A DNA stretch of 32,000 nucleotides from Candidatus Methylomirabilis oxygeniifera (GTDB taxonomy: Bacteria; Methylomirabilota; Methylomirabilia; Methylomirabilales; Methylomirabilaceae): positions 2,310,001 through 2,342,000 of the forward strand of contig FP565575.1 of assembly GCA_000091165.1 (NCBI GenBank), written 5' to 3'. Below are positions 2,568 to 25,150 of the stretch, in pieces (position 1 is the first letter of the stretch; each line of letters begins with the position of its first letter). The position numbers were made by a program, and so were the translations under genes. The notes below the pieces were generated by a model. That model did no database searches and was not told the origin of the DNA. It saw nothing but the letters and a program-made list of their open reading frames with translations.

Positions 2568-3236
2568 TCAAGGCGTGCGAGATTTTGGCTGCTCCGCTCG
2601 GGCGATATGGTAGCTCAAGGTCTTGAGGAGGGCCGACAGGTCGACGTTCTGGACCTTCACCGAATCGGGGGCGGTCAGTTGAGCGGGGGCGAAATTCAAG
2701 ACCGCAATGACCCCGCCCTTCACGAGGGCGTCGAGGACAACCTGGGCGCCTGGGGCAGGAACGGCTAAGATCCCGATCTTAATCTTCCGCTTGCGGACAA
2801 CCGAGGCGATCGTCCCGGTATCCATCACCTGCAACCCGTCAATCCGTCGACCGATCTTGGCCGGGTCCCGATCAAATACGACAGAGATCTTAAATCCTTT
2901 CTCCTGGAATCCCCGATAGGCAATCAACGCAGAGCCCAGATTCCCCAACCCGACCAAGGCCACCTCCCACGCCCGCTTGAGGCCCAGAATCTCCTCCAGG
3001 CTATGCCGAAGGGGGGTCACGTAGTACCCCAGACCCCTGATGCCAAACTGGCCGAAGTAGGCCAGGTCCTTTCGCACTTGGGCGGAATTCAGGCCGAAAC
3101 GATCGGCCAGTTGCTTGGACGAGATGCTCATCGTCCCTTCATTCTCCAACTCTTCCACGCAACGCAGATAGATCGAAAGCCGGGTGACGGTCTTCTCGGG
3201 AATCTTGATCGCTTTCATGGATAGAGACCCTCTCAT
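2568..3236 (-). CDS. rex: Redox-sensing transcriptional repressor Rex
   Basis: KIPEKTVTRLSIYLRCVEELE...SSKQLADRFGLNSAQVRKDLAYFGQFGIRGLGYYV plus the Rossmann motif LVGLGNLG. ATG 3236 overlaps the nuoN1 stop (ATGA). An alternative ATG at 3218 has a GAGGG RBS 9 nt upstream. Confidence 0.92.
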   Translation of the reverse strand: MRGSLSMKAIKIPEKTVTRLSIYLRCVEELENEGTMSISSKQLADRFGLNSAQVRKDLAYFGQFGIRGLGYYVTPLRHSLEEILGLKRAWEVALVGLGNLGSALIAYRGFQEKGFKISVVFDRDPAKIGRRIDGLQVMDTGTIASVVRKRKIKIGILAVPAPGAQVVLDALVKGGVIAVLNFAPAQLTAPDSVKVQNVDLSALLKTLSYHIARAEQPKSRTP

Positions 3237-4735
3237 CCTGTAATGGCTGAGACCGACTGTCGTGCCAGATCGAGTAACCTCGACGGGAATAGGCCAAGGT
3301 GAAGGGTTCCCATCACAGACACCGCCACGGCCAGAACGGCCGCTGCGGATGCCTGGACAAGCGGTATCTGTCCTCGACTCTGATCGTGGGGCGGGGAGGT
3401 TGCCTCGCTCATATACATGATGACGATAACGCGGAGATAAAAGTAGACCGAGACCACGCTGTTCAGGACGCCGATCACTGCCAGGACCGGATAGTCGCCT
3501 TCAAGGGCGGCGCTGAAGATATACAGTTTACCCATGAAGCCGGCTGTCGGAGGGATCCCGGCCAGTGAGAACATGAAGACAGCCATGCAAGCGGCCAGGA
3601 CCGGACGCTGCCATCCGAGACCGGCGTAGTCGGTCAGCAACAGCCGCTCTCGCTCATGACCTTGCAACGCGATGATGACCGCGAAGACACCAAGGTTCAT
3701 CAGGGCGTAGGCAACCAGGTAGAAGAGGATGCCGGCAACTCCGGATGACCCACCGGCGACCAACGCAACCAACAGATACCCGGCATGCGCGATCGAGCTG
3801 TAGGCGAGCATCCGCTTGATGTTGCTTTGAACCAGGGCCACCAGATTACCTACGGTCATGGTGAGGACCGCCAGAACCCAGATCGCCACCAACCACTGCA
3901 CGTGAAGGGCAGGCAATGCCAGAAGAAATACTCGCAGGAAGGCGGCAAAGGCCGCCGCCTTGGTTCCGGCAATCATAAACGCTGTCACCGAGGTGGGCGC
4001 CCCCTCATATACGTCTGGGGCCCACATATGGAACGGGACAGAGGCGATCTTGAAGCCGAACCCAACCAGCAGCAACCCTCCCCCGATCAGGAACAGGGGC
4101 GCGGGGGGATGCCCATCAACCAGAAAGGCCGCAATCTGTCGAAGAACGGTCGTGCCGGTCGCCCCATAAATCAGGGCAATGCCATAGAGGAAAAAGCCGC
4201 TGGCAAAGGCCCCGAGCAGGAGGTACTTCAGCGCCGACTCGTTCGAGCGAAGCTCTGTCTTCCAGAACCCGGCAAGCGTGTACAGGGCGAGCGAGAAGGT
4301 TTCAAGCCCCAGAAAAATCACGATCAGGTCCCCCCCTGCAGCCATGAGCATCATCCCCAATACCGAGAAAAGCACCAGGCTGTAATACTCTCCCTGGTCG
4401 GCGGCTGCGGTGTCGAGATAGCCCATCGACAGCAGGACGGTCAATATGCCAATCGGGCCGAGCATGAGATAAAAGAAGAGTGAAAATCGGTCTAATACGA
4501 CCGCGTCATGAAGGCCGTAGCGAACCATTCCCTGATCCGGGTCGAGGACAGGTCCCCATGAACTGATCGATAGCAGGATCGACGCCGCGAGCGCGATCAG
4601 GCTCAGGATGGCGACGAGGTATTTCCGCCCTGGCGGGAGAAAGAGCTCTGCCACCAACGTCGTGAGACCTCCAAGGGCGACTGGTAAGAGCGGCGCAAAG
4701 GGAGCCCAGTCGATCTGAGGCAGCACAAGCTCCAT
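3233..4735 (-). CDS. nuoN: NADH-quinone oxidoreductase subunit N (cluster 1)
   Basis: About 500-aa polytopic antiporter-like protein with typical NuoN motifs (KRMLAYSSIAHAGY). ATG 4735 overlaps the nuoM1 stop by 1 nt (TGATG). Confidence 0.93.
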   Translation of the reverse strand: MELVLPQIDWAPFAPLLPVALGGLTTLVAELFLPPGRKYLVAILSLIALAASILLSISSWGPVLDPDQGMVRYGLHDAVVLDRFSLFFYLMLGPIGILTVLLSMGYLDTAAADQGEYYSLVLFSVLGMMLMAAGGDLIVIFLGLETFSLALYTLAGFWKTELRSNESALKYLLLGAFASGFFLYGIALIYGATGTTVLRQIAAFLVDGHPPAPLFLIGGGLLLVGFGFKIASVPFHMWAPDVYEGAPTSVTAFMIAGTKAAAFAAFLRVFLLALPALHVQWLVAIWVLAVLTMTVGNLVALVQSNIKRMLAYSSIAHAGYLLVALVAGGSSGVAGILFYLVAYALMNLGVFAVIIALQGHERERLLLTDYAGLGWQRPVLAACMAVFMFSLAGIPPTAGFMGKLYIFSAALEGDYPVLAVIGVLNSVVSVYFYLRVIVIMYMSEATSPPHDQSRGQIPLVQASAAAVLAVAVSVMGTLHLGLFPSRLLDLARQSVSAITG

Positions 4736-6354
4736 CAATTCGCGCTCCGCGTCTCAAAAACAGGGTATAGGGAGTCGGAGGTAGGGTATCGGATCACATA
4801 CGGGGAGACCTGTCCAACTCCGCCACCCTCCACCCTCCACCCGCCACCCTGCTTTTCGCACTCTGTGCTTCGCACTTCGCAGAGGAGCTGCGCAACCGAC
4901 GCATCCATCCTTCTAAGGAGAGGGTTCGGATTCAGACCGATCCATACAATGAGCAGGATGATCGGAATCAGCATCGCCATCTCGCGACCGCTGATATCAT
5001 CGAGTGTGAGATTCTCGGCCCGTCGGCTTTGCCCCCACATCACGCGTTGCCACATCCAGAGCATATAGACCGCCGCCAGAATGATACCAAGGGTCGCGAG
5101 TACCGCAAATCCTTTGTGGACGCGGAATGTCCCCGCCAGGATCAGGAACTCCCCCACAAACCCGTTCAGACCCGGCAGGCCAATAGAAGACATGGTCACA
5201 ACCAGGAAACAGAGCGCAAAGCGAGGGAGCACCCGCGAAAGTCCGCCGAACTCCTCTATCATTCTGGTATGGCGTCGCTCATAGATCATCCCAACCAGCA
5301 GGAAGAGGGCGCCGGTGGAGAGGCCATGGTTGACCATTTGGAGGATCGAGCCCTCCACGGACTGCACATTCATGGCGAAGATGCCCAGCATCACGAATCC
5401 CAGGTGACTCACGGAACTATAGGCCACCAGTCGCTTGAGATCATCCTGAACCATGGCAACCAGCGCGCCGTACAGGATGCCGATCACGGCCAGCGCAGAA
5501 ATCAATGGGGTAAACGCGATAGCCGCTTCCGGAAAGAGCGGAAGCGCGAATCGAAGGAATCCGTATGTTCCCATCTTCAAAAGAACCCCGGCCAACAGCA
5601 CGCTTCCCGCCGTCGGCGCCTCCACATGGGCGTCCGGTAACCATGTATGAAACGGAAACATCGGCACCTTGATGGCAAAGGCGAGCGCAAAGGCGGCGAA
5701 GAGCAGCAGTTGCGTCCCGTACGGGATCGGTCCGCCGATTAACTCCAGGAGGTCAAACGACAACCGACCCGTGCTTTCCCGATGCAGGAAGGCCAAGGCG
5801 ATCATCGCCAGCAGCATCAGGACGCTTCCCGCCATTGTATACAGAACGAACTTTACAGTGGCATAGACTCGCCGATGCCCGCCCCAGACCCCGATCAGGA
5901 AATACATCGGGATCAGCATCCCCTCCCAGAACACATAGAAGAGCACGAGATCCAGGGCAACGAATACGCCGATCATGCCGGTTTGAAGCAGCAGCACGCA
6001 GATCATGTATGCTTTCACCCGATTCGTAATCCCGGAGAAGGAGGCCAGGATCGCGATAGGCGTGAGAAAGGTCGTGAGGAGCAGCAGCGGCAGACTGATC
6101 CCATCCACGCCGAGAAAATAGCTGCTTCCGATCGAATCGATCCACGGCGCCCGCTCCACAAACTGCATGCCGGCCTCGGCCGGATCAAAGCGTACATACA
6201 CGATGAGAGAGAGTAGGAGGTTGAGGCCGGAGATGGCCACCGCGAGCCGCTTGATCAGCGCTTCTCGCATCCCATCGACACATGCGAGCAAAAGCGCGCC
6301 ACACAGCGGCAGGGCAATAAGTATTGAGAGGATCGGACCGCCCGCCTGACTCAT
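4735..6354 (-). CDS. nuoM: NADH-quinone oxidoreductase subunit M (cluster 1), with a non-conserved C-terminal tail encoded by heptamer repeats
   Basis: Motifs include FPFHTWLPDAHVEAPTAGSVLLAGVLLKMGTYG. The last ~48 codons (4738-4885) overlie the tandem heptamer arrays. Confidence 0.92.
   Translation of the reverse strand: MSQAGGPILSILIALPLCGALLLACVDGMREALIKRLAVAISGLNLLLSLIVYVRFDPAEAGMQFVERAPWIDSIGSSYFLGVDGISLPLLLLTTFLTPIAILASFSGITNRVKAYMICVLLLQTGMIGVFVALDLVLFYVFWEGMLIPMYFLIGVWGGHRRVYATVKFVLYTMAGSVLMLLAMIALAFLHRESTGRLSFDLLELIGGPIPYGTQLLLFAAFALAFAIKVPMFPFHTWLPDAHVEAPTAGSVLLAGVLLKMGTYGFLRFALPLFPEAAIAFTPLISALAVIGILYGALVAMVQDDLKRLVAYSSVSHLGFVMLGIFAMNVQSVEGSILQMVNHGLSTGALFLLVGMIYERRHTRMIEEFGGLSRVLPRFALCFLVVTMSSIGLPGLNGFVGEFLILAGTFRVHKGFAVLATLGIILAAVYMLWMWQRVMWGQSRRAENLTLDDISGREMAMLIPIILLIVWIGLNPNPLLRRMDASVAQLLCEVRSTECEKQGGGWRVEGGGVGQVSPYVIRYPTSDSLYPVFETRSAN
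4762..4882. repeat. About 17 consecutive heptamer units, including (CCACCCT)x4 at 4823-4850 and TTCGCAC-type x4 at 4855-4882
   Basis: Read directly: AGGGTAT AGGGAGT CGGAGGT AGGGTAT CGGATCA ... CCACCCT CCACCCT CCACCCG CCACCCT ... TTCGCAC TCTGTGC TTCGCAC TTCGCAG. Confidence 0.85.
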
Positions 6355-6369
6355 ATCATCCCCTGTGCC

Positions 6370-8262
6370 CTATCCGGAAAACGCCAGATACCCCAACAGG
6401 ACCACCGCACCCACAAGGATCGACAGGATATAGGTTGGAACATAGCCGGTCTGAAGTCGCCTCAGCAGGTGTCCGGCACGGGTTGCAAGCGCAGCAACGC
6501 CGTTGACCGACCCGTCGATCACACGCGCATCGAACGACTCCGATAGGGTGCGAGCGGAGACGACGGCCGGACGGATCACCGTCTTATCGTACAGTTCATC
6601 AACCCAATATTTGTGCAAGAGGGCACGATACAGCGCGGGATACCGCGCGGCACACGCCTCAGCTCTGGCAGGATCCCGAAGGTAGCACCAAAAAGCTATA
6701 GCGATCCCACCGACTGCCATCACAAGAGCCACGACCGCAAGTACGATCCCGGAGGCCGGCTCGGCTGAGGCCTCATGCGCCGACACGGGGAAGACCGAAC
6801 CCAGGAAGCGGTGCAGTACACCTGAGTCCGGCGGGACACCGACAAACCCGACGGTCGACGATCCGAGCGCCAACAACACAAGCGGCAGGCGCATGCTCCA
6901 CGGCGCCTCGTGCAGGTGGCTGAGGGTGTGGGAGTCGAGCCTCGACTGTCCCGCAAAGGCAAGGAAGTAGAGACGAAACATGTAGAACCCGGTGCCGGCC
7001 GCGGTCAACGCTCCAATGACCCAGAGCGGCCCGTGTCCCGAGGCGTAGACGGCGGACAGGATCTCATCCTTGCTCCAGAAGCCGGCGAATGGGGCAATCC
7101 CGGCGTTCGCCAGCGCACCGACAAGAAAGCTGCCTGCCGTGACACGCAGGGAGTGCCGCAGCCCGCCCATCTTCCGTATATCCTGCTCACCGGCCAACGC
7201 ATGAATCACCGATCCGGCCGACAGGAAGAGGAGGGCCTTAAAAAAGGCGTGGGTCATCAGGTGAAAGATCCCCGCAGCGTACGCCCCGACTCCCAAGCCT
7301 AAAAACATATAGCCGAGCTGGGAGATGGTCGAGTAGGCGATAATCCGCTTGATATCGGTCTGTACCAGGGCGATGCTCGCCGCATAGAGGGCCGTGAGGC
7401 CGCCGACCCAAGCGACGATCTCCAGGCTGACGGGCGCCAGTTGGAACAGGGGGGCGGAACGCGCGACCAAGTAGACGCCCGCCGTCACCATGGTCGCCGC
7501 ATGAATCAGCGCCGAGACGGGAGTGGGTCCCTCCATCGCATCAGGCAACCAGACATACAACGGGAGTTGGGCCGACTTGCCGGTTGCACCGATGAACAGG
7601 AGGAGGGTGAGAAGACATGCGGCCACAGAGCCGTACGCCAGTACGGTCGGCGCTTCCGTCAACACGGTCTGGAAGTCCAGCGAGCCGAACAGCAGGATCA
7701 TCCAGATCAGTCCCACAACCATGGCACCGTCGCCGATCCGGTTCACCAGGAAGGCCTTGGTACCGGCGGATGCCGCAGCCGGTCGCTCGAACCAGAAACC
7801 GATCAACAGGTACGAACAGAGACCTACACCCTCCCATCCCACAAAGAGCATGAGGTAGTTATCGGCCAGGACCAGGACCAGCATCTCAGCCAGAAAGAGA
7901 TTGAGCAGCGCGAAGAAACGGTGGTAGTCGCGGTCTTCCTCCATATAGCCAATCGAGTAGATGTGAATGAGTAGACCCACGCCACACACCACCAACGCCA
8001 TGATGGCAGAGAGGGGATCGAACAGAAACCCGAACGAGACCGAGAAATCACCGGAGGCGATCCAGGAGCCGAGGGAGGAGCGAAGCAGGCGCCCTTCCGA
8101 CGGCATCTGAAGGAGGCGGACAAAGGCCACTAGAGAAAGAAGCAGCGAAAGCGATACGGCGGTGCAGGCGACCACCGCCACCAGCCTTCGCGGCATACGC
8201 CGGCCCATCAGACCGACGACGAGACTTCCCGCCAGCGGGATGAGCGGAATCAGCCAAACCAT
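6370..8262 (-). CDS. nuoL: NADH-quinone oxidoreductase subunit L (cluster 1)
   Basis: 630 aa. Contains GWEGVGLCSYLLIGFW and SAQLPLYVWLPDAMEGPTPVSALIHAATMVTAGVY plus the C-terminal lateral-helix region. Confidence 0.95.
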   Translation of the reverse strand: MVWLIPLIPLAGSLVVGLMGRRMPRRLVAVVACTAVSLSLLLSLVAFVRLLQMPSEGRLLRSSLGSWIASGDFSVSFGFLFDPLSAIMALVVCGVGLLIHIYSIGYMEEDRDYHRFFALLNLFLAEMLVLVLADNYLMLFVGWEGVGLCSYLLIGFWFERPAAASAGTKAFLVNRIGDGAMVVGLIWMILLFGSLDFQTVLTEAPTVLAYGSVAACLLTLLLFIGATGKSAQLPLYVWLPDAMEGPTPVSALIHAATMVTAGVYLVARSAPLFQLAPVSLEIVAWVGGLTALYAASIALVQTDIKRIIAYSTISQLGYMFLGLGVGAYAAGIFHLMTHAFFKALLFLSAGSVIHALAGEQDIRKMGGLRHSLRVTAGSFLVGALANAGIAPFAGFWSKDEILSAVYASGHGPLWVIGALTAAGTGFYMFRLYFLAFAGQSRLDSHTLSHLHEAPWSMRLPLVLLALGSSTVGFVGVPPDSGVLHRFLGSVFPVSAHEASAEPASGIVLAVVALVMAVGGIAIAFWCYLRDPARAEACAARYPALYRALLHKYWVDELYDKTVIRPAVVSARTLSESFDARVIDGSVNGVAALATRAGHLLRRLQTGYVPTYILSILVGAVVLLGYLAFSG

Positions 8263-8268
8263 AGTTCA

Positions 8269-8322
8269 GGGTGTAGGGTGTAGGGTGTAGGGTAGTATGC
8301 TGAACACTTCACACTAAACACT
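8269..8322. repeat. (GGGTGTA)x3 plus a partial unit (8269-8294), followed by GAACACT TCACACT AAACACT (8302-8322), in the nuoK1-nuoL1 spacer
   Basis: Read directly. Four G3 tracts at 8269-8292 fit G3N4G3N4G3N4G3. Confidence 0.9.
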
Positions 8323-8327
8323 GGCCA

Positions 8328-8639
8328 CTATCCTTTCAGTAGATTAATCTCGTCCACATTCAGGGACTCTTTGTTTCTGTACAGCGCAATGATGATGGCC
8401 AGCCCTACTGCCACTTCGGCCGCCGCCACCGCCATCACAAACAACACAATGATCTGCCCATCCATCGAGTGGAGAAACCTCGAGAACGCCACAAAGGTAA
8501 GATTGACCGCGTTCAACATCAGCTCGATCGACATAAAGATCACCAGCGCGTTGCGCCGAATCAGTACCCCGGCGACCCCGATGACGAAGAGAGCGGCGCT
8601 CAAGATCAGGTACGCGCTCAGAGGAACAGTCGCGCTCAT
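8328..8639 (-). CDS. nuoK: NADH-quinone oxidoreductase subunit K (cluster 1)
   Basis: 103 aa. Contains [12 protein letters not shown] and [11 protein letters not shown]. Confidence 0.95.
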
Positions 8640-8647
8640 ATCGCCTC

Positions 8648-8782
8648 GATGGTATGGACGGCAGTGCGCGAAGCGTCGTCGATGGCAGGCGAAGCATGGA
8701 CAGCGTAGCTTGCCATCGCCGATTCGAGCCGTACAGGGACGTACGGCGAGATTAAGCAGAGCACGCTGCCGTCCATACCATC
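8648..8782. repeat. 135-nt structured inverted-repeat element: 17-bp perfect outer stem enclosing two internal hairpins
   Basis: Outer arms: GATGGTATGGACGGCAG (8648-8664) and CTGCCGTCCATACCATC (8766-8782). Inner stem 1: CGATGGCAGGC (8680-8690) with GCTTGCCATCG (8708-8718). Inner stem 2: CCGTAC (8729-8734) with GTACGG (8741-8746). It occupies the 173-nt nuoJ1-nuoK1 gap, where the paralogous nuoJ2-nuoK2 gap is only 3 nt. Confidence 0.8.
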
Positions 8783-8812
8783 AACCTCGCATCTCGCGTA
8801 TGATATGAATAG

Positions 8813-9319
8813 TTATCTCCTAGCCAAGACCATAGCGCCGATAATGGCGATAAGGAGGATGACGGAGGTAATCTCAAATGGGATGAGAAAATCGGTGAAT
8901 AAGAGGCGGCCGACGAGCTGAGCATTTCCGATGGCACCTACAACCTCGGATGTATAGGGACCCTGGGGTGCACGAGAATCATTGGAGCCGATGGGGATCG
9001 CCAACTCAAGCAGCAGGAGGGCGGCCGCACCAACACCAAGCAGGAACCTGGACCGATCTCGCTGCAGCCAAGCGGGCAGTTCATGCCCCAGATCGAGCAG
9101 CATCACCACAAACAGGAACAGGACCATGATCGCCCCGGCGTAGACGATCACCTGCACAACAGCGATGAATTGCGCCTGCAACAGCAGATAGATTCCTGAC
9201 AGCGCGAGGAACGTCCCAACCAGCGAGAGGGCGCAGTAGACCGGGTTTCGCAGGACGATGACCAGTGCTGCAGTGACAAGCGCCATTGCGGCCAGCGGCA
9301 CAAACACCAGCCATTCCAT
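8813..9319 (-). CDS. nuoJ: NADH-quinone oxidoreductase subunit J (cluster 1)
   Basis: Begins MEWLVFVPLAAMALVTAALVIVLRNPVY.... ATG 9319 is 2 nt after the nuoH1 stop (9322-9324). The longer ORF extension to 9517 overlaps nuoH1 and was rejected. Confidence 0.9.
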   Translation of the reverse strand: MEWLVFVPLAAMALVTAALVIVLRNPVYCALSLVGTFLALSGIYLLLQAQFIAVVQVIVYAGAIMVLFLFVVMLLDLGHELPAWLQRDRSRFLLGVGAAALLLLELAIPIGSNDSRAPQGPYTSEVVGAIGNAQLVGRLLFTDFLIPFEITSVILLIAIIGAMVLARR

Positions 9320-9321
9320 CC

Positions 9322-10308: not shown

Positions 10309-10384
10309 TGTGCTCCCCTGTCTGTCGCCCGCTCCCCACTTTATGTCTGCGGGGACAGGCTACGATGAGTGAGTGGGGCCTGGC

Positions 10385-11668: not shown

Positions 11669-11693
11669 GGGAGTTCAGCTATCAGCTTCTACC

Positions 11694-11724
11694 GAGTCTG
11701 TTGGGTCATTGAGTCTGTTGGGTC
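11694..11724. repeat. 14-nt direct repeat GAGTCTGTTGGGTC x2 (3-nt spacer) spanning the nuoE1 stop
   Basis: Copies at 11694-11707 and 11711-11724 were read directly. Heptamer-like units GAGTTCA GCTATCA GCTTCTA precede it at 11671-11691. Confidence 0.8.
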
Positions 11725-12221
11725 GACTCAATAGACTGAGCTGACTGCTGATTGCCGGCAGCCACCTGCTTTCGCAGCCGTGCAACCAGCGTCTCAACTT
11801 CACCGTGCGAAACCGGACCGTAGTAATCCGATCCCACTTGGATCGCCGGAGCACGTCCACAAGCCGCAAGGCACTCAACCCGCTTGATGGTAAACAGACC
11901 ATCCGGTGTCGTCTCTCCCGCGCTGACCCCCAGCACCTCTTCAAGGCGCCGAATCACCTGTTCGGCGCCTAAGAGCGCACAGCTCAGATTGTGGCAGACC
12001 CAGATCTCTCGCTGCCCACCAGGCTTCAGGCGAAACATGTCGTAGAACATGGCCACCTCCGCCACCTGGATCGGCGGCAGGTCAAGACGAGCGGCCAGCT
12101 CACGCATGGCATCCGCTGTCAGATACCCCCCCTCCTCCTGGCATAAGTGCATCAGCGGCAACAGGGCGGAACGGCGCTCAGGGTATCGCGATAGGATGCG
12201 CTGAATCGTTTCTTCGGTCAT
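11706..12221 (-). CDS. nuoE: NADH-quinone oxidoreductase subunit E (2Fe-2S, N1a)
   Basis: Contains RRSALLPLMHLCQEE, VCHNLSCALLG and VECLAACGRAPA. Confidence 0.95.
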   Translation of the reverse strand: MTEETIQRILSRYPERRSALLPLMHLCQEEGGYLTADAMRELAARLDLPPIQVAEVAMFYDMFRLKPGGQREIWVCHNLSCALLGAEQVIRRLEEVLGVSAGETTPDGLFTIKRVECLAACGRAPAIQVGSDYYGPVSHGEVETLVARLRKQVAAGNQQSAQSIESTQQTQ

Positions 12222-12237
12222 ATCACCTCAAAAGACG

Positions 12238-15528: not shown

Positions 15529-15577
15529 CACGCCTCCCGATTGTTGTACGGGAAATCACATACAGACCGCAAGAAAA

Positions 15578-15793
15578 TCAACTCCCCCAATGCTTGAGAT
15601 CCTTCATGAGATTGGTAAAGCCGGCCGCAACCCCGAAGATGAAAAACAGAATCATGAGCCACGGCGACGTCCCCAGCCAGCGATCCAAGGCAATCCCGAT
15701 AGCGGCCCCGATCGCAATCGAAGCGGCGAACGTGATCCCCAGTGAACTCAGTCCTGCGAGCTGCCGCCACAGTCGAGTCTGATCGTCCTTCAT
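15578..15793 (-). CDS. atpZ: AtpZ/AtpI-family small membrane protein (ATPase_gene1 type)
   Basis: Two-TM protein: WRQLAGLSSLGITFAASIAIGAAIGIALDRWLGTSPWLMILFFIFGVAAGF. ATG at 15793, with an alternative GTG at 15820. Confidence 0.8.
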   Translation of the reverse strand: MKDDQTRLWRQLAGLSSLGITFAASIAIGAAIGIALDRWLGTSPWLMILFFIFGVAAGFTNLMKDLKHWGS

Positions 15794-15873
15794 GTTCCCG
15801 CCTATAAAACCCCCGCTCACCCGCCTTTATCAAAGGGGGGAAGGGGGCCTTCCCTCCTGCTGTGTTCGACCCT

Positions 15874-15902
15874 ACTCTAGCCATCCCCCTCCACACTGTC
15901 AA
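15874..15902 (-). promoter_or_regulatory. Candidate sigma70 promoter for atpZ-atpB-atpE (TTGACA-N17-TAGAGT)
   Basis: On the minus strand, TTGACA is at 15902-15897 and TAGAGT at 15879-15874. A GGGAAGG-CCC-CCTTCCC hairpin (15838-15854) follows in the 5' UTR. Confidence 0.45.
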
Positions 15903-15923
15903 GGTTCACCGACCTCCTGAATT

Positions 15924-17375
15924 CTACCAGAGCCCGGCGACCGAGGCCCTGGCTAACTCCAGAAACGGGCCGGGGTAGATGCCGATAGCGATGGTGGCGA
16001 CCAGGGTTACGAACAGCGCCAGCCGCAACGGTGCAGAAGAGCTCAGGGTCAGGCCCTGTGGCGGCAGGTCCCGCATATACATCGCCACCACCACCTTCAT
16101 GTAGTAGAAGAGCGAAATGGCTGAATTGATGACGGCAATGATCGCAAGCCAGACATACCCTCGTTCGATAGCGGCGCCGAACAGATAGAACTTCCCAACG
16201 AAGCCGGCGGTCGGCGGAACTCCCGCCAATGAAAGGAGGAAGATTAACATGACGGCGGCCGCCATCGGACTGCGCTGCGCCAGGCCGGTGAAGTCGTCAA
16301 TGCGCTCCCCTTTCACCTCTCCTACGCAGAGCAGGATGACCATGGCAAAGGCGCCCAGTGTCATCATGGCGTAGATCAGGGTATACAGCAACACGGCTGA
16401 GATCCCCAGCTCCCGTCCCGCCACCAACCCGATCAGCAGGTACCCGATGTGCGCGATCGAGCTGTAGGCGAGCATTCGCTTGACATTGCTCTGCGCGATT
16501 GCCACAACATTGCCGATGGTCATCGTGAGCAACGACAAGACATAAAAGAGAAGCGTCCAGCGATCCTGCAGGCCCGGAATGGCCACCAGAAAGACCCGCA
16601 TGAGAATGGCGAGACCAGCAACCTCTGAAGCGGCCGATAGAAGAGCCGCCACAGGGGTCGGAGCGCCCTCATACACATCAGGGATATACATGTGGAACGG
16701 GACCGCCGCGATCTTGAATCCGAATCCGGCGACCAGCATCACCATGCCCAGGATAAGCGCAGGATTCGAGGCGGTGTCCGCTGAGATCATTGAGGCGATC
16801 TCTCTCAGGCCGATAGTACCGGTCAGGCCATACAACATGACGATGCCGTACAGCATAATCGCAGAAGAAAATCCACCCATCAGCAGATACTTCAGGGCGG
16901 CTTCGCTGCTGCGTCGTTCCCGCTTCATAAAACCGGCCAGAATATATATAGAAATCGACATCATCTCCAGGCCGATATACAGGATCAGGAGATCGACGGC
17001 GCTAACCATCAGCATCATGCCGAGCGTGGCGAAGAGGATGAGAGGGTAGAACTCGCCCTTGTCGATCCGTTCGCTCTTCAGGTAGCCGATCGACATCAGC
17101 AGGATCAGCGCGGCAGAGACCAGAAATACGATCTTAAAGAAGAATGCGAACGGATCGCTGATATATTGCCCGCTGAAGGCGGACTGCGTCACCCCCCATT
17201 GGCGGATCAGGACGATGAAGGTGCCAAGGACGCCAACGATGCTCAGATATCCCAGCCAGTCTCGTCCGCCTTTAGGGGCGATAAAATCGAGCGCAAGGAT
17301 CCCCATAGCCACGAGGCTCAGGATCACCTCCGGCGAGGTTGTGGAGAGATCGGCCATGTTGAATACTTGAGTCAT
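15924..17375 (-). CDS. nuoN: NADH-quinone oxidoreductase subunit N (cluster 2)
   Basis: 483 aa. Contains KRMLAYSSIAHIGY. The start overlaps the nuoM2 stop (ATGA). Confidence 0.93.
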   Translation of the reverse strand: MTQVFNMADLSTTSPEVILSLVAMGILALDFIAPKGGRDWLGYLSIVGVLGTFIVLIRQWGVTQSAFSGQYISDPFAFFFKIVFLVSAALILLMSIGYLKSERIDKGEFYPLILFATLGMMLMVSAVDLLILYIGLEMMSISIYILAGFMKRERRSSEAALKYLLMGGFSSAIMLYGIVMLYGLTGTIGLREIASMISADTASNPALILGMVMLVAGFGFKIAAVPFHMYIPDVYEGAPTPVAALLSAASEVAGLAILMRVFLVAIPGLQDRWTLLFYVLSLLTMTIGNVVAIAQSNVKRMLAYSSIAHIGYLLIGLVAGRELGISAVLLYTLIYAMMTLGAFAMVILLCVGEVKGERIDDFTGLAQRSPMAAAVMLIFLLSLAGVPPTAGFVGKFYLFGAAIERGYVWLAIIAVINSAISLFYYMKVVVAMYMRDLPPQGLTLSSSAPLRLALFVTLVATIAIGIYPGPFLELARASVAGLW

Positions 17376-19036: not shown

Positions 19037-19120
19037 ATGAACCGCAAACCTCCTGTCTCGGGTCCGACTATCGCCTCCAACACCCAGCCTTCAGCCACAA
19101 CGCTACGTTCCATTTCCTGT

Positions 19121-19148
19121 TGACTGCTGATAGCCGTCGGCCAATCGC
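19121..19148. repeat. Heptamers TGACTGC TGATAGC CGTCGGC CAATCGC (reverse-complement family of GCNNTCA at 775-795)
   Basis: Read directly, immediately downstream (mRNA sense) of the nuoL2 stop, within the 112-nt nuoL2-nuoM2 spacer. Confidence 0.75.
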
Positions 19149-21185
19149 TCATAAAAACAGATAGAACACCACCATGCCGACGATGCCAAGCGCCATGGCC
19201 AGAATGTAGTTCTGAATTGCTCCTGTCTGCAGCCTTCGCAGAGTGAAGCTTCCACCTTGAATCAGATCGGCGATAGCGTTGACCAGGCCATCAACAATCT
19301 TCATATCGTGCCAGGACGAGATCGCACTCAGCCGCATGGTCAGCCAGCTACTGCCGTTGACGGCGCCGTCCACCACCTTGGCGTCAACACCCCAGAGGAA
19401 GCCGCAGAAGCGCTTGCCAAAATGGATGAAGATCGCTTCGTATAGCTCATCGACCCAATACTTGTTCAGTAACAGATTGTAGAAACCGCGCAGCTTGTCC
19501 GCCAGCGCCGTGGGTATATCCGGCCGTTTGACGTAGAACAGATAGGCGAGGCCGATCCCAGCCAGCGCAACTGCCAGCGAGACCGCGGCCATAACAAGCT
19601 CGGATGCGCCCGCCGCATGCCCGGCGGCCGCCGCCACCACATGCTCGGTACCCCCTTCCATCGCATGCTCGGCGGCCTCGCCGACACCATGCCCGACAGC
19701 CGCCTCTGATCCGTGGGCGACCTCAAAGATCGGCGCGACGAATTTGTGATAGAGCCCGTGATCTGGAGGGAACCCTAACGCCGCGCCCGCAATTACCGAA
19801 AGGACGCCGAGCACCAGCAACGGATACGCCATGTTCGGCGGCGATTCGTGCAGGTGATGGGCGGTATGGTGGTCACCGCGAAAATGCCCGGTGAAAACCT
19901 GGAAGAACAGCCTGAACATATAGAAAGCCGTCAGGAAGGCGCCGATCAGCCCTAAAAGCCAGGGGATCGTGAGGCCACGCACAAAGGCATTGAATAGAAT
20001 CTCATCCTTGGACCAGAAACCCGCCAGAGGGAAGATCCCGGCGTTCGCCAGCGAGGCCAGCAGGAAGGTCCAGGTGGTAATCGGCATCGCCTTCCGCAGT
20101 CCGCCCATCTTTCTCATGTCCTGCTCGCCATGCAATGAGTGAATGACCGAGCCGCAGCCAAGAAACAGGAGCGCCTTGAAGAAGGCATGCGTCCCGAGGT
20201 GAAATACCGCGGATGGGTAGGCGCCGGCCCCGGCGCCCAGAAACATGTAGCCGAGCTGGGAGATCGTAGAGTAGGCCACAACCCGCTTGATGTCGTTCTG
20301 AACCAGTGCGATGGTGGCCGCGAAGACGGCCGTCAGCGCACCGACCCAGGCCACTACTTCGAGGCTGAACGGGGCCAGATTGAACAGGGCGTTCGACCGG
20401 GCCACCATATAGACGCCCGCCGTCACCATTGTGGCGGCATGGATCAATGCGGAGACCGGTGTGGGCCCTTCCATGGCGTCGGGAAGCCAGACATACAGCG
20501 GAAGCTGGGCCGACTTGCCCGTCGCGCCCACGAACAGCAGCAGCGTGATGGTCGTGTAGATCCCGGCGCCCAGCGTGGGATCGATCGCCGCAAATACTTC
20601 GGTATACTTCAGCGACCCGAAGGTGGTCCAGATAAAGAAGAGTCCGAGGATAAATCCGGCGTCGCCGATTCGGTTGACGACAAACGCCTTCTTGCCGGCG
20701 TCCCCTGCCGATTTTTTCTCATACCAGAAGCCGATCAGCAGATACGAGCAGAGCCCGACACCCTCCCACCCCAGGAACATCAGCAGGTAGTTGTTGGCCA
20801 GCACCAGCATCAGCATCGAGAACATGAACAGATTGAGGTAAGTAAAGAAGCGGGCATAGCCCCGATCACCGTGCATATAGCCGATCGAGTAAACATGGAT
20901 GAGGAACCCGACGAACGTAACCACCAGCATCATGACGGTGGAAAGCGGGTCGACCAGGAACCCGATCGGTACCTTGAGGTCGCCGACGTTCAGCCACGGA
21001 TAGACGTCCCAGTCGAGCGTCGCGCCACCCAGCGTCTGAAAGAACACGACAAACGCCACAAGGCACGACAGCCCCGCAGCCGGGACCGCGATCAGATGGG
21101 CCCGCTCCTTGATCCAGGCGCCGAACAGCCCATTGATCAGGACGCCGATCAGCGGCAGCAACGGTACAAGCGCAACCAGCTTCAT
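19149..21185 (-). CDS. nuoL: NADH-quinone oxidoreductase subunit L (cluster 2)
   Basis: 678 aa. Contains GWEGVGLCSYLLIGFWY and SAQLPLYVWLPDAMEGPTPVSALIHAATMVTAGVY. Confidence 0.95.
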   Translation of the reverse strand: MKLVALVPLLPLIGVLINGLFGAWIKERAHLIAVPAAGLSCLVAFVVFFQTLGGATLDWDVYPWLNVGDLKVPIGFLVDPLSTVMMLVVTFVGFLIHVYSIGYMHGDRGYARFFTYLNLFMFSMLMLVLANNYLLMFLGWEGVGLCSYLLIGFWYEKKSAGDAGKKAFVVNRIGDAGFILGLFFIWTTFGSLKYTEVFAAIDPTLGAGIYTTITLLLFVGATGKSAQLPLYVWLPDAMEGPTPVSALIHAATMVTAGVYMVARSNALFNLAPFSLEVVAWVGALTAVFAATIALVQNDIKRVVAYSTISQLGYMFLGAGAGAYPSAVFHLGTHAFFKALLFLGCGSVIHSLHGEQDMRKMGGLRKAMPITTWTFLLASLANAGIFPLAGFWSKDEILFNAFVRGLTIPWLLGLIGAFLTAFYMFRLFFQVFTGHFRGDHHTAHHLHESPPNMAYPLLVLGVLSVIAGAALGFPPDHGLYHKFVAPIFEVAHGSEAAVGHGVGEAAEHAMEGGTEHVVAAAAGHAAGASELVMAAVSLAVALAGIGLAYLFYVKRPDIPTALADKLRGFYNLLLNKYWVDELYEAIFIHFGKRFCGFLWGVDAKVVDGAVNGSSWLTMRLSAISSWHDMKIVDGLVNAIADLIQGGSFTLRRLQTGAIQNYILAMALGIVGMVVFYLFL

Positions 21186-21187
21186 GC

Positions 21188-21222
21188 GAGTGTTGAGTGT
21201 TGAGTGTTGAGTGTTGAGTGTC
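21188..21222. repeat. (GAGTGTT)x4 perfect plus one imperfect unit, in the nuoK2-nuoL2 spacer
   Basis: Read directly. The mRNA-sense complement (AACACTC)n contains no G. Confidence 0.92.
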
Positions 21223-21237
21223 TGAAACGGATCATAC

Positions 21238-21546
21238 TTACCATTTCATCAGATTGATTTCGTCGACGTTGATGGTCTGAAAGTTTCGGTACAGCCCGAG
21301 GACGATCGCCAGCCCCACCGCGGCCTCGGCTGCCGCCACAGTAATGACAAAGATAGCAAAGATCTGCCCCTGCATGAGCGCCTGGGGCAGATATCTGGAA
21401 AATGCCACAAAATTCAGATTGACCGCATTGAACATCAGCTCCAACGCCATCAGTATGCCGACGGCATTGCGACGGGTCAGGGCCCCAAACATCCCGATGC
21501 CAAACAATATCACGCTAAGAATCAGATAGTACGACAGCGGCACCAT
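21238..21546 (-). CDS. nuoK: NADH-quinone oxidoreductase subunit K (cluster 2)
   Basis: 102 aa. Contains [12 protein letters not shown] and [11 protein letters not shown]. Confidence 0.95.
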
Positions 21547-21549
21547 CCG

Positions 21550-22062
21550 TCAGTCCTTCCCCCGTTCGCGTCGAGCCAGAATAATTGCGCCCACCATGGC
21601 CGCCAGCAGAAGAAGCGATACCACCTCAAACGGCAGGACGTAGGTGGTCAGCAGGAGCTTCCCGATCGAGGCGGTGTTATCCGCCATCGTCAGGGGCGGC
21701 ACCATGGCGGGAAAGCCTTTCAGGTTGGCATAGGCCAGGAGCCCGACGATCGCGAGGACCACCACCGCGGAGATCCCCACCTGCTCGTTCATAATCTTGA
21801 CCCCGCCGGCCGAGATCCGACTGGTCAACATGATCGCGAACAGCAGGAGGATGGTAATCCCTCCCACGTACAGCAGCACCTGCGCGGCCGCCAGAAATTC
21901 GGCGTCAAGCAGGACAAACAGCGCGGCAACGCCGAAGAAGGCAAAGACCAATGCGATGGCGCAATGCACGATGTTTTTGGCCAGGACCACCAGCAGAGAG
22001 GCTCCCACCGTGAAGGCCGCCATCAGGAAAAATACAACGTGAGTCACAGTCACAAGCGCCAC
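21550..22062 (-). CDS. nuoJ: NADH-quinone oxidoreductase subunit J (cluster 2)
   Basis: Contains LAKNIVHCAIALVFAFFGVAALFVLLDAEFLAAAQVLLYVGGI. GTG start at 22062. An alternative GTG at 22053 is better spaced from the GGGGAG RBS. Confidence 0.88.
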   Translation of the reverse strand: MALVTVTHVVFFLMAAFTVGASLLVVLAKNIVHCAIALVFAFFGVAALFVLLDAEFLAAAQVLLYVGGITILLLFAIMLTSRISAGGVKIMNEQVGISAVVVLAIVGLLAYANLKGFPAMVPPLTMADNTASIGKLLLTTYVLPFEVVSLLLLAAMVGAIILARRERGKD

Positions 22063-22071
22063 TCCCCAGTA

Positions 22072-23080
22072 CTAAGAATCTTTTAACACCAGGATCAATC
22101 CGGTAATCCCCATATTCAGCAAGGCCAGCGGCAGTAGGAACTTCCATCCCAGATTCATGAGTTGATCGACCCGCAGTCTGGCTAACGTCCAGCGCAGCCA
22201 CATCATGACGAAAATAAATGAAATAGGTCTTCAGCAGGAACCAGAGCCACCCCGGCAGCAGCGGCCCGTGCCACCCGCCGAGAAACAGCGTGGTGGCGAT
22301 GGCAGAGACCACGAACATATTGGCGTACTCCGCCAGAAAGAATATGGCAAACCGCATCCCGCTGTACTCAACATGAAAACCGGCCACCAGCTCCGACTCG
22401 GCCTCCGGGATGTCAAACGGCGTCCGGTTGCATTCGGCGATCGCCGCCGTCAGATAGATCAGGAAGCCAAGCAGTTGCGGAACCACAAACCACATCCCCT
22501 CCTGCGCCTCTACAATCCGGGTCATGCTCATCGAGCCGACCGTCATGATGACCCCGATCACCGAGAGCACAAGAGGAACTTCGTAGCTGACCGCCTGAGC
22601 CGCTGAGCGGATGGCGCCCAGAACCGAATATTTATTATTGGAGCTCCAGCCGGCCATAATGATCCCCACGACCGTCAGAGAGGAGATCGAAATATAGAAG
22701 AGGACGCCGATGTTCAGGTCGCCCGCGATAAGGCCCGGACCGAACGGAATAATTACAAACGCGGCAAGCGAGGCCGCAAAGACCACCATCGGCGCCAGGG
22801 CAAATACCAGTCGGTCGGCTCCAGCCGGGATGATATCCTCCTTGAGGAGGAGCTTGAGTCCATCGGCGATACTCTGGGCCCAGCCGTGCCAGCCGCCGAC
22901 CCGCATCGGCCCAAAGCGGACCTGGATGTGGGCACTGATTTTCCGCTCCCACCAGACCATAAACATCACGGAGACGGCGGTGAAGATGAGAACAGCCGTG
23001 GCCACCGCCAGCATCACGATCAACTGGGCGACCGTAAGGGGTAGACCCCACTCACTTAAGATGTCGTAAACAGGCTCCAT
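22072..23080 (-). pseudogene. nuoH: NADH-quinone oxidoreductase subunit H (cluster 2), interrupted by a 1-nt frameshift at about 22210-22214
   Basis: Frame 0 gives a normal NuoH up to ...[11 protein letters not shown], then nonsense that overlaps nuoJ2 as far as 21905. Skipping one nt (TAT TTT C|GTC) restores [45 protein letters not shown]-stop (TAG 22072-22074). This aligns without gaps to the NuoH1 C-terminus ([24 protein letters not shown]). Confidence 0.85.
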
Positions 23081-23103
23081 CAATCTTCCGTAAGAGAAAA
23101 TAA

Positions 23104-23157
23104 GTTGTTAGTTTTACGTTTTTAGTTTCGTTACTCAGAACTCAACACTAAACACCG
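23104..23157. repeat. Heptamers GTTGTTA GTTTTAC GTTTTTA GTTTCGT (23104-23131) followed by an ACACTAAACAC motif shared with 8311-8321
   Basis: Read directly in the 87-nt nuoD2-nuoH2 spacer. The 11-mer ACACTAAACAC occurs at 23145-23155 and at 8311-8321. Confidence 0.8.
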
Positions 23158-23167
23158 GTAACTGTCT

Positions 23168-24301
23168 TTACCGGTCCACCTCGCCCAGCACGATGTCGAA
23201 ACTCCCCAGGATGGCCACAAGATCCGCAACGAGGTAGCCGGTACCCATTACGGGCAGCACGCTTAGGTTAACAAAGGTCGGAGAGCGAACCTTATACCGG
23301 TACGGCTTTTCAGAGCCGTCGGATACGATATAGAACCCCAGCTCACCCCTGGGCGTCTCCACCCTGCTGTAGATGTCTCCGACCGGCGGCTTCAGCTTCT
23401 TCGGCATCTTCGCGATGATCTCGCCGGACGGTAGCCCCTGGAGAGCTTGTTCGATGATCTTCACGCTCTCTTCCATCTCGATCCGTCTGACCATATAGCG
23501 GTCCCAGACGTCGCCGGAGGTCCCTACCGGGATATCAAACTCAAAACGATCGTAGATAGAGTATGGATCGTCTCGACGCAAGTCCCACTTGATCCCGGAG
23601 CCGCGGAGCACCGGCCCGCTGATGGCATAGTTGATGGCCGTCTTAGGGTCGAGTATGCCGAGACCTTGCACCCGTTTTTGGAAGATGATGTTGTCGGTCA
23701 TCACGGCATCGTACTCCGGCAGGCGCGGCTTGAACCATGCCAGGAACGCCTTACAGTCGGCCACGAAGGAATCCGGGAGGTCCAATGGCATCCCGCCGAT
23801 CCGGTAGAAGGCGTAGTTCAGTCGTTGACCGCAGACCGATTCGAACAGATCCAGGATCTTTTCACGCTCCCGGAAGCAGTACAAGAAGATCGTGAAGTTA
23901 CCCAGGTCGAGTCCGAAGGTCCCCAGCCAGATCAGGTGGCTGGCGATTCGCTGCAGCTCGCCCAGGATGACCCGCATATATTCGGCCCGTTCCGGTACGG
24001 CAATCCCCAGGTGCCGCTCCATCGTCAATACGAAGCCCCAGTTGTTATACATCGAGGCCAGATAGTCCAACCGGTCGGTGTACGGAATGATCTGTGTATA
24101 GATGCGGTTCTCACCGATCTTTTCATGGCAGCGATGCAGGTAGCCGATGTACGGGATGATCTCGGTGACCACCTCGCCGTCCAACTTCAACAGGAGGCGA
24201 AGCACGCCATGGGTGCTGGGGTGCTGCGGCCCCATGTTGACGTACATCTCCTCCATCGTTTCCTGGGTACGCTCAGCAATCTCCATCTCGTGCGGATTCA
24301 T
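23168..24301 (-). CDS. nuoD: NADH-quinone oxidoreductase subunit D (cluster 2, divergent paralogue)
   Basis: Contains MGPQHPSTHGVLRLLLKLDG, YIGYLHRCHEK, DRLDY and C-terminal GEVDR. Confidence 0.93.
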   Translation of the reverse strand: MNPHEMEIAERTQETMEEMYVNMGPQHPSTHGVLRLLLKLDGEVVTEIIPYIGYLHRCHEKIGENRIYTQIIPYTDRLDYLASMYNNWGFVLTMERHLGIAVPERAEYMRVILGELQRIASHLIWLGTFGLDLGNFTIFLYCFREREKILDLFESVCGQRLNYAFYRIGGMPLDLPDSFVADCKAFLAWFKPRLPEYDAVMTDNIIFQKRVQGLGILDPKTAINYAISGPVLRGSGIKWDLRRDDPYSIYDRFEFDIPVGTSGDVWDRYMVRRIEMEESVKIIEQALQGLPSGEIIAKMPKKLKPPVGDIYSRVETPRGELGFYIVSDGSEKPYRYKVRSPTFVNLSVLPVMGTGYLVADLVAILGSFDIVLGEVDR

Positions 24302-24326
24302 CTGCCTGCCTCAACAAAACTGATCA

Positions 24327-24791
24327 TTACACCGGCTCATACGGGACCAGCCGTTCGTCCTGATAGTCTTTGCGCAACGGATACCCGACCCAATCCTCAG
24401 AAAGCAGAATCCGCCGGAGGTCCGGATGACCATCAAAGCGGATCCCCATCATGTCGAACGCCTCCCGTTCATGCCAGTCTGCCGTGCCCCACAGCGACGC
24501 CACGCTCCGGATAATCGGATCCTCACGCGGAACCCGCGCCCTCACCAGGGCCTTTGTCGGTAGCGACAGGGAAGAGAGGTGATACACCACCTCAAGTTCG
24601 CCACTCGCAATCCTGTCCACAGCACTCAGGCAGTTCAGATAATCGAGCCCTATCCCTTTCAGCGTCATCAGGATTTCGTAATTCTTCTCCGGATGGATAT
24701 CGATTCGAGCCTCGACACCCTTCACCTCTGAGGCCTTGACGGCATCGCCGAACTGCGACTTGATGGTTTCGATAACCTCATCCGGCGTCAT
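24327..24791 (-). CDS. nuoC: NADH-quinone oxidoreductase subunit C (cluster 2)
   Basis: Contains LSAVDRIASGELEVVYHLSS and [27 protein letters not shown] 24791 overlaps the nuoA2 stop (ATGA), so no nuoB lies between A and C. Confidence 0.9.
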   Translation of the reverse strand: MTPDEVIETIKSQFGDAVKASEVKGVEARIDIHPEKNYEILMTLKGIGLDYLNCLSAVDRIASGELEVVYHLSSLSLPTKALVRARVPREDPIIRSVASLWGTADWHEREAFDMMGIRFDGHPDLRRILLSEDWVGYPLRKDYQDERLVPYEPV

Positions 24792-25150
24792 CAGACCCAC
24801 TCCAAGGCGCCCTTGCGCCAGGCATAGGCGAAACCCACCAGCAAAATGGCAATAAAGAGCATCATCTCTACAAACGCAAACATCCCCAGCTTCCGGAAGA
24901 CGACCGCCCAGGGCAGCAGATAGATCGTCTCCACCGCGAAGATGACGTAGACCAGCGCATACAGGTAGTACCGGACGTGAACGCGGATCCAGGAGGCACC
25001 GACCGGGTCTTCGCCGCATTCGTACGTCGTGTACTTTTCCGGCTCAGGGTTGGTGGGGCGCAGCAGCCGGGAGACGACGTCGACATTGACCACAACGAAA
25101 AGCAGACCGACGATCAGAAAAATACCTACGATTGCATAATCCGCTGCCAT
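24791..25150 (-). CDS. nuoA: NADH-quinone oxidoreductase subunit A (cluster 2)
   Basis: 119 aa. Contains YTTYECGEDP, YLYALVYVIFAVETIYLLPWA and WRKGALEW. Confidence 0.93.
   Translation of the reverse strand: MAADYAIVGIFLIVGLLFVVVNVDVVSRLLRPTNPEPEKYTTYECGEDPVGASWIRVHVRYYLYALVYVIFAVETIYLLPWAVVFRKLGMFAFVEMMLFIAILLVGFAYAWRKGALEWV

Follow-up and report, generated by a model that had tools for sequence, protein, structure and literature searches.

The nuo clusters of Candidatus Methylomirabilis oxygeniifera lack nuoB and nuoI and are probably completed by genes at a second locus

A 32,000-nucleotide (nt) stretch of the Candidatus Methylomirabilis oxygeniifera chromosome (here M. oxyfera, of the NC10 bacteria; contig FP565575.1, positions 2,310,001 to 2,342,000; hereafter the window) carries two tandem clusters of nuo genes, which encode subunits of respiratory complex I, and both clusters lack nuoB, nuoI and nuoG. 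Here, we identify a second locus on the same chromosome that encodes two NuoB-NuoI pairs and a NuoG, and we conclude with good confidence that the window holds most of two complete complex I isozymes whose remaining subunits are supplied from there. Cluster 1, together with one pair (NuoB-b and NuoI-b) and NuoG, would form a canonical 14-subunit NADH (reduced nicotinamide adenine dinucleotide):quinone oxidoreductase, Nuo-1, in which electrons would pass from flavin mononucleotide (FMN) through the iron-sulfur (Fe-S) clusters N3, N1b, N4, N5, N6a and N6b to N2. Cluster 2, together with the other pair (NuoB-a and NuoI-a), would form Nuo-2, which would have 11 subunits, belong to the short-NuoD type and possess no module for NADH oxidation.

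The subunit inventory carries this proposal. All 14 core subunits, NuoA to NuoN, are encoded for Nuo-1, eleven of them in the window and NuoB-b, NuoI-b and NuoG at the second locus, and this set contains the ligands of N2, of N6a and N6b and of N1b, N4 and N5, as well as the FMN and N3 domains of NuoF (PF01512, PF10589). For Nuo-2, the set A, B, C, D, H, I, J, K, L, M and N is complete without E, F or G, with nine subunits encoded in the window and NuoB-a and NuoI-a in trans.

Two nuo clusters without nuoB, nuoI and nuoG

We assigned genes by Pfam searches of the window's open reading frames (ORFs) and checked the subunit content by tblastn against all six frames, using as queries the thirteen Nuo proteins of E. 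coli, in which NuoC and NuoD form a single fused protein. We also compared the window with four other assemblies of the organism (L002-L005), namely one European Nucleotide Archive (ENA) assembly and the Logan assemblies of SRR023516, ERR13927233 and ERR15566676. All relevant genes lie on the minus strand; read along that strand, cluster 2 (25150-15924) is followed by atpI-like, atpB and atpE genes (15793-14390), by cluster 1 (14340-3233) and by rex. By Pfam, cluster 2 has the order nuoA2-C2-D2-H2-J2-K2-L2-M2-N2 and cluster 1 the order nuoA1-C1-D1-E-F-H1-J1-K1-L1-M1-N1. The coordinates of these nuo, atp and rex features are positions within the window:

24791-25150, minus strand: nuoA2, 119 amino acids (aa); Pfam PF00507, E = 4.8e-38
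24327-24791, minus strand: nuoC2, 154 aa; Pfam PF00329, gene call in L002
23168-24301, minus strand: nuoD2, 377 aa, CBE69783.1; Pfam PF00346, NCBIfam NF008974
22072-23080, minus strand: nuoH2, frameshifted in this assembly; Pfam, partial
21550-22062, minus strand: nuoJ2; Pfam PF00499
21238-21546, minus strand: nuoK2; Pfam PF00420
19149-21185, minus strand: nuoL2, 678 aa; Pfam PF00361 and PF00662
17372-19036, minus strand: nuoM2, 554 aa; Pfam PF00361, best tblastn match E. coli NuoM
15924-17375, minus strand: nuoN2, 483 aa; Pfam PF00361, best tblastn match E. coli NuoN
15578-15793, minus strand: atpI-like gene; Pfam PF09527
14809-15531, minus strand: atpB, F0 subunit a; Pfam PF00119
14390-14788, minus strand: atpE, F0 subunit c; Pfam PF00137
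13981-14340, minus strand: nuoA1, 119 aa; Pfam PF00507
13487-13993, minus strand: nuoC1, 168 aa; Pfam PF00329, gene call in L002
12322-13494, minus strand: nuoD1, 390 aa, canonical NuoD, CBE69771.1; NCBIfam TIGR01962, 595 bits (cut-off 459)
11706-12221, minus strand: nuoE; Pfam PF01257
10385-11668, minus strand: nuoF, FMN/NADH site and N3; Pfam PF01512 and PF10589
9322-10308, minus strand: nuoH1, 328 aa; Pfam PF00146
8813-9319, minus strand: nuoJ1; Pfam PF00499
8328-8639, minus strand: nuoK1; Pfam PF00420
6370-8262, minus strand: nuoL1; Pfam
4735-6354, minus strand: nuoM1; Pfam
3233-4738, minus strand: nuoN1; Pfam
2568-3236, minus strand: rex, redox-sensing repressor; Pfam PF06971 and PF02629

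The E. coli NuoB, NuoI and NuoG queries have no tblastn match below E = 0.35 in the six frames of the window; NuoE and NuoF each match it once, and the remaining queries match it twice. These results bear out the original prediction, made from the letters of the window, that both clusters lack nuoB, nuoI and nuoG, that cluster 2 also lacks nuoE and nuoF, and that no NuoB or NuoI is encoded in any frame. The measured overlaps and gaps likewise agree with its claim that the junctions leave no room for the absent genes. nuoC starts within the end of nuoA, the two genes sharing 13 nt in cluster 1 and a single nucleotide in cluster 2, which leaves no space for nuoB; nuoJ1 starts 2 nt past the nuoH1 stop codon and nuoJ2 begins 9-18 nt past nuoH2, depending on the start chosen, leaving no space for nuoI; and the 76-nt gap between nuoF and nuoH1 holds no nuoG. 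Except for nuoH2, every nuo ORF is full length and has strong Pfam scores, and the paralogues of the two clusters are 32-66% identical, in keeping with the old duplication that had been suspected.

On the lptD side, the locus is flanked by a Fic gene and toxin-antitoxin genes (PIN/PhdYeFM and PIN/MazE-like; window 31240-31961 and beyond, L002:619-3062), and in L003 a CRISPR cas2 gene lies just past these toxin-antitoxin genes.

A second locus encodes two NuoB-NuoI pairs and one NuoG

A search with the NuoB of an Acidobacterial operon that contains a NuoD1-like NuoD led to NuoB proteins from NC10 bacteria, including P0106 from a Methylomirabilis sp., whose locus contains a nuoG as well as two pairs of nuoB and nuoI. 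A NuoI encoded at the P0106 locus shares its 90%-identity cluster with an M. oxyfera protein, CBE68673.1, which we call NuoI-a. In M. oxyfera, the corresponding locus lies on ENA contig Methylomirabilis_oxyfera_contig_34 (L089), with the order nuoG, nuoB-a, nuoI-a, trxB, moeA and others, iscS, iscA, nuoB-b, nuoI-b, yjbQ and a VIT1-family gene; the part from nuoG to trxB is also present on a Logan contig of SRR023516 (L090). The genes of interest are:

L089:7722-9356: nuoG, 544 aa
L089, 105 nt past nuoG: nuoB-a, 175 aa
L089, 11 nt past nuoB-a: nuoI-a, 176 aa, CBE68673.1
L089, 1 nt past nuoI-a: trxB
L089, past iscS and iscA, about 8 kb beyond trxB: nuoB-b, 181 aa, and nuoI-b, 153 aa

NuoI-a and NuoB-a (P0199) are on the same 2,752,854-bp record as NuoD1 (CBE69771.1) and NuoD2 (CBE69783.1). 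Their accession numbers are about 1,100 apart from those of the NuoD proteins and the two regions fall on different ENA contigs, which places the window and the trans locus far from one another. Among the loci examined we find one copy of nuoG, as against two nuoB-nuoI pairs.

The original prediction implied that the Fe-S wire through N6a, N6b and N2 is missing from both enzymes. This proves wrong, as every cluster ligand is present in the trans-encoded copies: by motif search, both NuoB proteins carry the N2 ligands (CCxxE, GAC and GCPP), each NuoI carries two CxxCxxCxxxCP motifs, and NuoG carries the Cys/His patterns of N1b, N5, N4 and N7. NuoG also passes the NCBIfam model TIGR01973 (503 bits against 470), both NuoB proteins pass TIGR01957, and NuoI-b passes NF004537. 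Reading the two NuoB sequences side by side, we find two extra residues beside the third N2 cysteine in NuoB-a (GGPFYYDAYHVV, versus GGIFNTYTIV in NuoB-b). NuoI-a has a Pro/Ala-rich C-terminal tail.

The M. oxyfera NuoG is short at 544 aa, compared with 908 aa for the E. coli protein. In another Methylomirabilis species (L088:1-3249), an 818-aa hypothetical gene and a 93-aa fragment with a molybdopterin domain lie between nuoG and nuoB-a, an arrangement that, together with the length of the M. oxyfera protein, suggests an insertion and a shortened NuoG C-terminus.

Assignment of the NuoB-NuoI pairs to the clusters

In order to assign the pairs, we compared the M. oxyfera proteins with operons of other organisms that still hold nuoB and nuoI in place. 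Fifty-nine such operons encode a NuoD1-like NuoD (59-66% identity to NuoD1, about 50% to NuoD2). Their NuoB is nearer to NuoB-b than to NuoB-a in 48 of the 59 (means of 68.9% versus 61.1%), and their NuoI is nearer to NuoI-b than to NuoI-a in all 47 of those whose nuoI was compared (52.1% versus 30.9%). For the second lineage, locus L093 preserves an undivided A-B-C-D-H-I-J-K-L-M-N operon, followed by atpI-like and atpB genes as after cluster 2. Its NuoB (P0275) is the nearest homologue of NuoB-a outside NC10 among those whose context was examined. Every other subunit compared is closer to the cluster 2 copy than to the cluster 1 copy (percent identity, cluster 2/cluster 1: A 66/53, D 68/50, H 67/54, J 58/32, K 73/61, L 59/48, M 66/58, N 58/45), its NuoB is 73% identical to NuoB-a and 68% to NuoB-b, and its NuoI is 55% identical to NuoI-a and 34% to NuoI-b. 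By sequence similarity, then, NuoB-b and NuoI-b, together with NuoG, most plausibly pair with cluster 1, and NuoB-a and NuoI-a with cluster 2; that NuoG serves Nuo-1 is likewise an inference.

Several observations weigh against this assignment. The margin between NuoB-a and NuoB-b in L093 is small, and NuoB is slightly nearer to NuoB-a in 11 of the 59 NuoD1-like operons. NuoI-a falls just below the cut-off of TIGR01971 (100.5 versus 113.05 bits) and reaches that of no other NuoI model, a shortfall that explains its original label as a putative 4Fe-4S ferredoxin; set against this are its two intact CxxCxxCxxxCP motifs and the position of its L093 homologue between nuoH and nuoJ. A milder point is that nuoG stands directly upstream of nuoB-a and nuoI-a, the pair that we give to the cluster without NuoE and NuoF. 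This adjacency is not seen in the more distant Methylomirabilales L101-L104, where moaA comes next to the a-type nuoB (immediately behind it in L103 and L104, behind nuoI in L101 and L102) and no nuoG is nearby. Finally, further copies of nuoB, nuoD or nuoG, or a third nuo operon, may exist beyond the loci examined.

Some of these same observations would also speak for pairs that are not dedicated at all, so that either pair, or only one of them, served both membrane/quinone (Q) modules and the trans locus acted as an Fe-S cartridge under regulation of its own. In favour of this, nuoB and nuoI lie away from both clusters, beside iscS-iscA and trxB, and NuoB-a and NuoB-b are 63% identical. We nevertheless consider such sharing improbable. 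The two pairs match the two clusters in number, NuoI-a and NuoI-b are merely 37% identical, and NuoI similarity splits cleanly by lineage, in all 47 comparisons for NuoI-b and in L093 for NuoI-a. Both NuoD and NuoB moreover show clade-specific differences, namely a 25-residue deletion in NuoD2 and the two extra residues in NuoB-a. Thus, of the suggestion that both modules share trans-encoded NuoB, NuoG and NuoI, the trans encoding at a second locus of the same genome stands, and the sharing of NuoB and NuoI gives way to two pairs, one per cluster by sequence.

NuoD, the quinone site and the nuoH2 frameshift

In structures of complex I, the quinone site of NuoD is formed at the interface with NuoB, and electrons arrive there from N2. 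Both M. oxyfera NuoD proteins retain the quinone-site His and Tyr that the original prediction pointed out (GPQHPSTHG, and DRMDY or DRLDY): in our alignment, NuoD1 His19 and Tyr68 are invariant columns whose equivalents are kept in NuoD2, and their spacing of 49 residues is what equivalence to H38 and Y87 would demand. NuoD2 differs from NuoD1 in lacking a 25-residue segment (PPPKPMVKQSMEALIHHFLLWSSGF), a deletion shared with the NuoD proteins of L093 (11033-12178) and of Planctomycetota L095 (2047-3273), and it passes the short-NuoD model NF008974 (535.3 bits versus a cut-off of 522).

Among the nuo genes of the window, one is disrupted, namely nuoH2, in which an extra T at 22216-22218 shifts the reading frame (CATTTATTTTCG in the window, CATTATTTTCG elsewhere). 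The Pfam match of the ORF reaches only profile positions 4-261 of 298, and the remainder of NuoH lies in another frame. All four other assemblies of the organism encode an intact 335-aa NuoH and, save for this one base, are identical to the window over the aligned stretch, so that the frameshift is probably a sequencing error in the deposited record. We considered nuoH2 as a pseudogene and rejected this as the likely explanation, the extra T being missing from those four assemblies.

That the frameshift is specific to one assembly also weakens the idea that either cluster, or both, is a relic in decay and that the organism respires with another, complete nuo operon. The frameshift itself and the restriction of the analysis to individual loci of the genome are in its favour. 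The other ORFs have their full length and score strongly in Pfam, the quinone-site residues are retained, the entire tandem persists in a genome of twice the size whose NuoD2 is 78% identical, and matching NuoB-NuoI pairs are maintained with intact ligands, all of which makes decay very improbable.

Conservation of the arrangement in relatives

Three other Methylomirabilis/Methylomirabilota genomes (L008-L010) have the same layout without nuoB and nuoI. The tandem recurs on a 5.6-Mb contig (L105) that encodes a NuoD with 78% identity to NuoD2; there, a nuo-2 cluster is followed by atpI, atpB and atpE and then by nuoA-nuoC, again without nuoB and nuoI; the presence of atp genes after a nuo operon is a synteny common to L105 and L093. 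Stand-alone nuoB genes occur in related contigs, with nuoI alongside in L088, L101, L102, L107 and L108. Their neighbours recur as well: moaA in L101-L104, and iscS/nifU/iscA-type genes preceding a nuoB in L088, L103/L104 and L107/L108.

Outside the phylum, eleven Acidobacterial loci (L012, L022, L024, L038, L053, L062, L066, L070, L078, L079 and L080) have the order A-C-D-E-F-G-H-J-K-L-M, without nuoB and nuoI but with nuoG, and a locus labelled Acidimicrobiia (L056) has likewise this order without nuoB or nuoI. In the Acidobacterial operons (Terriglobia, Solibacteraceae), nuoB and nuoI are gone at the same two junctions as in cluster 1 and NuoD is 62-66% identical to NuoD1; the difference is that those operons keep nuoG between nuoF and nuoH. 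We did not find the home of the Acidobacterial nuoB and nuoI among the candidates followed, as P0079 and P0101 belong to canonical operons and the locus of P0017 stands alone, with a synteny like that of Methylomirabilis. The Acidobacterial operons would be consistent with either convergence or an ancient origin of the arrangement. Two other Acidobacterial loci (L011 and L027) have the order I-A-B-C-D-E-H-J-K-L-M-N, with nuoI upstream of nuoA, nuoB in place, and nuoF and nuoG not in the operon.

Nuo operons without nuoB and nuoI are thus a recurring arrangement and not a quirk of one assembly, as the survey of relatives that had been called for confirms for Methylomirabilota and extends to Acidobacteria. 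An assembly error that removed nuoB or nuoI from the window, which had been named as a possible undoing of the prediction, is excluded by the identical junctions in the other assemblies and in related species.

Transcriptional organisation of the two loci

Three candidate regulatory elements lie upstream of nuoA2 or of the atpI-like gene:

25350-25379, minus strand: sigma-70-like promoter TTGACA-18-TAGTAT upstream of nuoA2 (consensus match only)
15874-15902, minus strand: sigma-70-like promoter TTGACA-17-TAGAGT upstream of the atpI-like gene (consensus match only)
25257-25280, minus strand: terminator-like hairpin AGGATGCCCTGTGCGGGGCAT followed by T8, within the 245-nt leader between the promoter-like site and nuoA2

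The two promoter-like regions resemble one another beyond their hexamers (CCTTGACAG..GGAGGGGG..GCTAG.(A/G)T). A consensus scan finds no promoter-like site in the 49-nt gap between atpE and nuoA1, and therefore atpI-atpB-atpE, cluster 1 and rex may form one transcript. rex overlaps the nuoN1 stop codon by 4 nt and is, judging from this layout, probably co-transcribed with the Nuo-1 genes. The hairpin upstream of nuoA2 may serve as an attenuator or as another element of the leader, or it may just terminate the cytochrome c gene that lies upstream, in which case the adjacent promoter match would be spurious.

In L089, promoter-like sequences are found upstream of nuoG and of iscS. iscS, iscA, nuoB-b and nuoI-b (L089:16772-19430) are spaced 28-59 nt apart and share the one promoter-like site upstream of iscS; nuoB-a, nuoI-a and trxB form a second tight stretch (L089:9462-11462), in which trxB begins 1 nt after nuoI-a. 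This layout suggests that the genes of the Fe-S subunits share transcripts with housekeeping genes for Fe-S and thiol-redox functions. This setting invites the idea that nuoB and nuoI are kept as pairs beside such genes by selection, as a regulatory or assembly design in which a cartridge is tied to iron and Fe-S supply. We hold this to be unlikely on present evidence; if true, the cartridge could gate the activation of pre-made membrane and NuoCD modules or permit swaps between isozymes.

We looked for a regulatory link between the loci and found none. Allowing up to three mismatches, the Rex operator TTGTGAANNNNTTCACAA has one 3-mismatch match each in the window and in L089, both intragenic and at chance level; no canonical Rex operator lies near promoters in either sequence, and nothing in this search ties the two loci together through Rex. 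The upstream regions of both loci have only trivial 9-mers in common, and Rfam yields no matches in the window at gathering thresholds.

Discussion

What we describe is an unusual gene arrangement and not a new kind of enzyme: the two complex I isozymes are ordinary in themselves, and it is their gene sets that are split. Compared with the canonical 14-subunit complex I (NDH-1; E. coli, or Nqo1-14 of Thermus thermophilus), Nuo-1 has the full set once the trans-encoded genes are counted. It differs in that its genes are not one operon, with nuoB, nuoI and nuoG at a distance, nuoB-b and nuoI-b following iscS-iscA, and rex overlapping the last gene. Cluster 2 with NuoB-a and NuoI-a has the same subunit set as the 11-subunit Nuo that lacks NuoE, NuoF and NuoG and has a short NuoD of about 366 aa (NF008974/PRK12322). 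The nuoABCDHIJKLMN operon of the Bacillus cereus group is of this type, and L093 represents the undivided operon of the cluster 2 lineage. Nuo-2 departs from the type in that its nuoB and nuoI have moved out of the operon and that NuoI-a is divergent.

An alternative that takes the gene order at face value is that the clusters encode Fe-S-free membrane/Q modules with another electron input and that the trans-encoded nuoB and nuoI belong to an unrelated complex, to which the original ferredoxin label and subthreshold score of NuoI-a might point; we find this scarcely credible, as the neighbourhood of the trans genes offers no other partner resembling NuoD or NuoH, the closest homologues of NuoB-a and NuoI-a sit inside an 11-subunit nuo operon between A/C and H/J, and the NuoD quinone site is made with NuoB. 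An Fe-S-free Mrp-like or novel module was also considered and rejected, since it presupposes the lack of a NuoB-NuoI partner and the genome encodes two such pairs.

Returning to the split isozymes, different electron-input partners, as originally suggested for both clusters, are plausible for cluster 2 only, which lacks NuoE and NuoF and is of the short-NuoD type, and even there NuoB and NuoI would still be used. Nuo-2 would take electrons from, or give them to, a partner other than the NADH module. Ferredoxin is the usual proposal for 11-subunit Nuo enzymes and may be the partner here too. A 2-oxoacid:ferredoxin oxidoreductase is encoded on the opposite strand upstream of nuoG in L089, a location that is merely suggestive; we identified no docking subunit for the Nuo-2 electron partner in the loci examined.

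Complex I genes are scattered or duplicated in other bacteria as well, including the cyanobacterial ndh genes and those of Aquifex aeolicus. The NUO-2 genes of Nitrospina gracilis comprise a solitary nuoB2, a solitary nuoF2 and the two clusters nuoACHIJKLMN and nuoEGD (PMC3578206). N. gracilis and M. oxyfera have in common the distribution over several loci and the paralogous sets; in M. oxyfera, however, it is exactly nuoB and nuoI that are out of both operons, they are kept as NuoB-NuoI pairs, and the pattern is phylum-wide. In our full-text literature search, we found no paper that describes how the nuo genes of M. oxyfera are laid out or that reports nuo operons devoid of nuoB and nuoI.

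These findings leave intact the rule that NuoB and NuoI are required for complex I. They do bear on how genomes are read, as pathway tools that consider operons only would score Methylomirabilis and Acidobacteria of like arrangement as having an incomplete complex I. The conserved separation of nuoB and nuoI from nuoC, nuoD and nuoH offers a natural system in which to study the assembly and regulation of the Q module. For the bioenergetics of M. oxyfera, our model would mean a 14-subunit enzyme that is linked to NADH alongside a second enzyme of 11 subunits. Both are encoded largely in the tandem clusters, which are separated by F0 ATP synthase genes and closed by rex.

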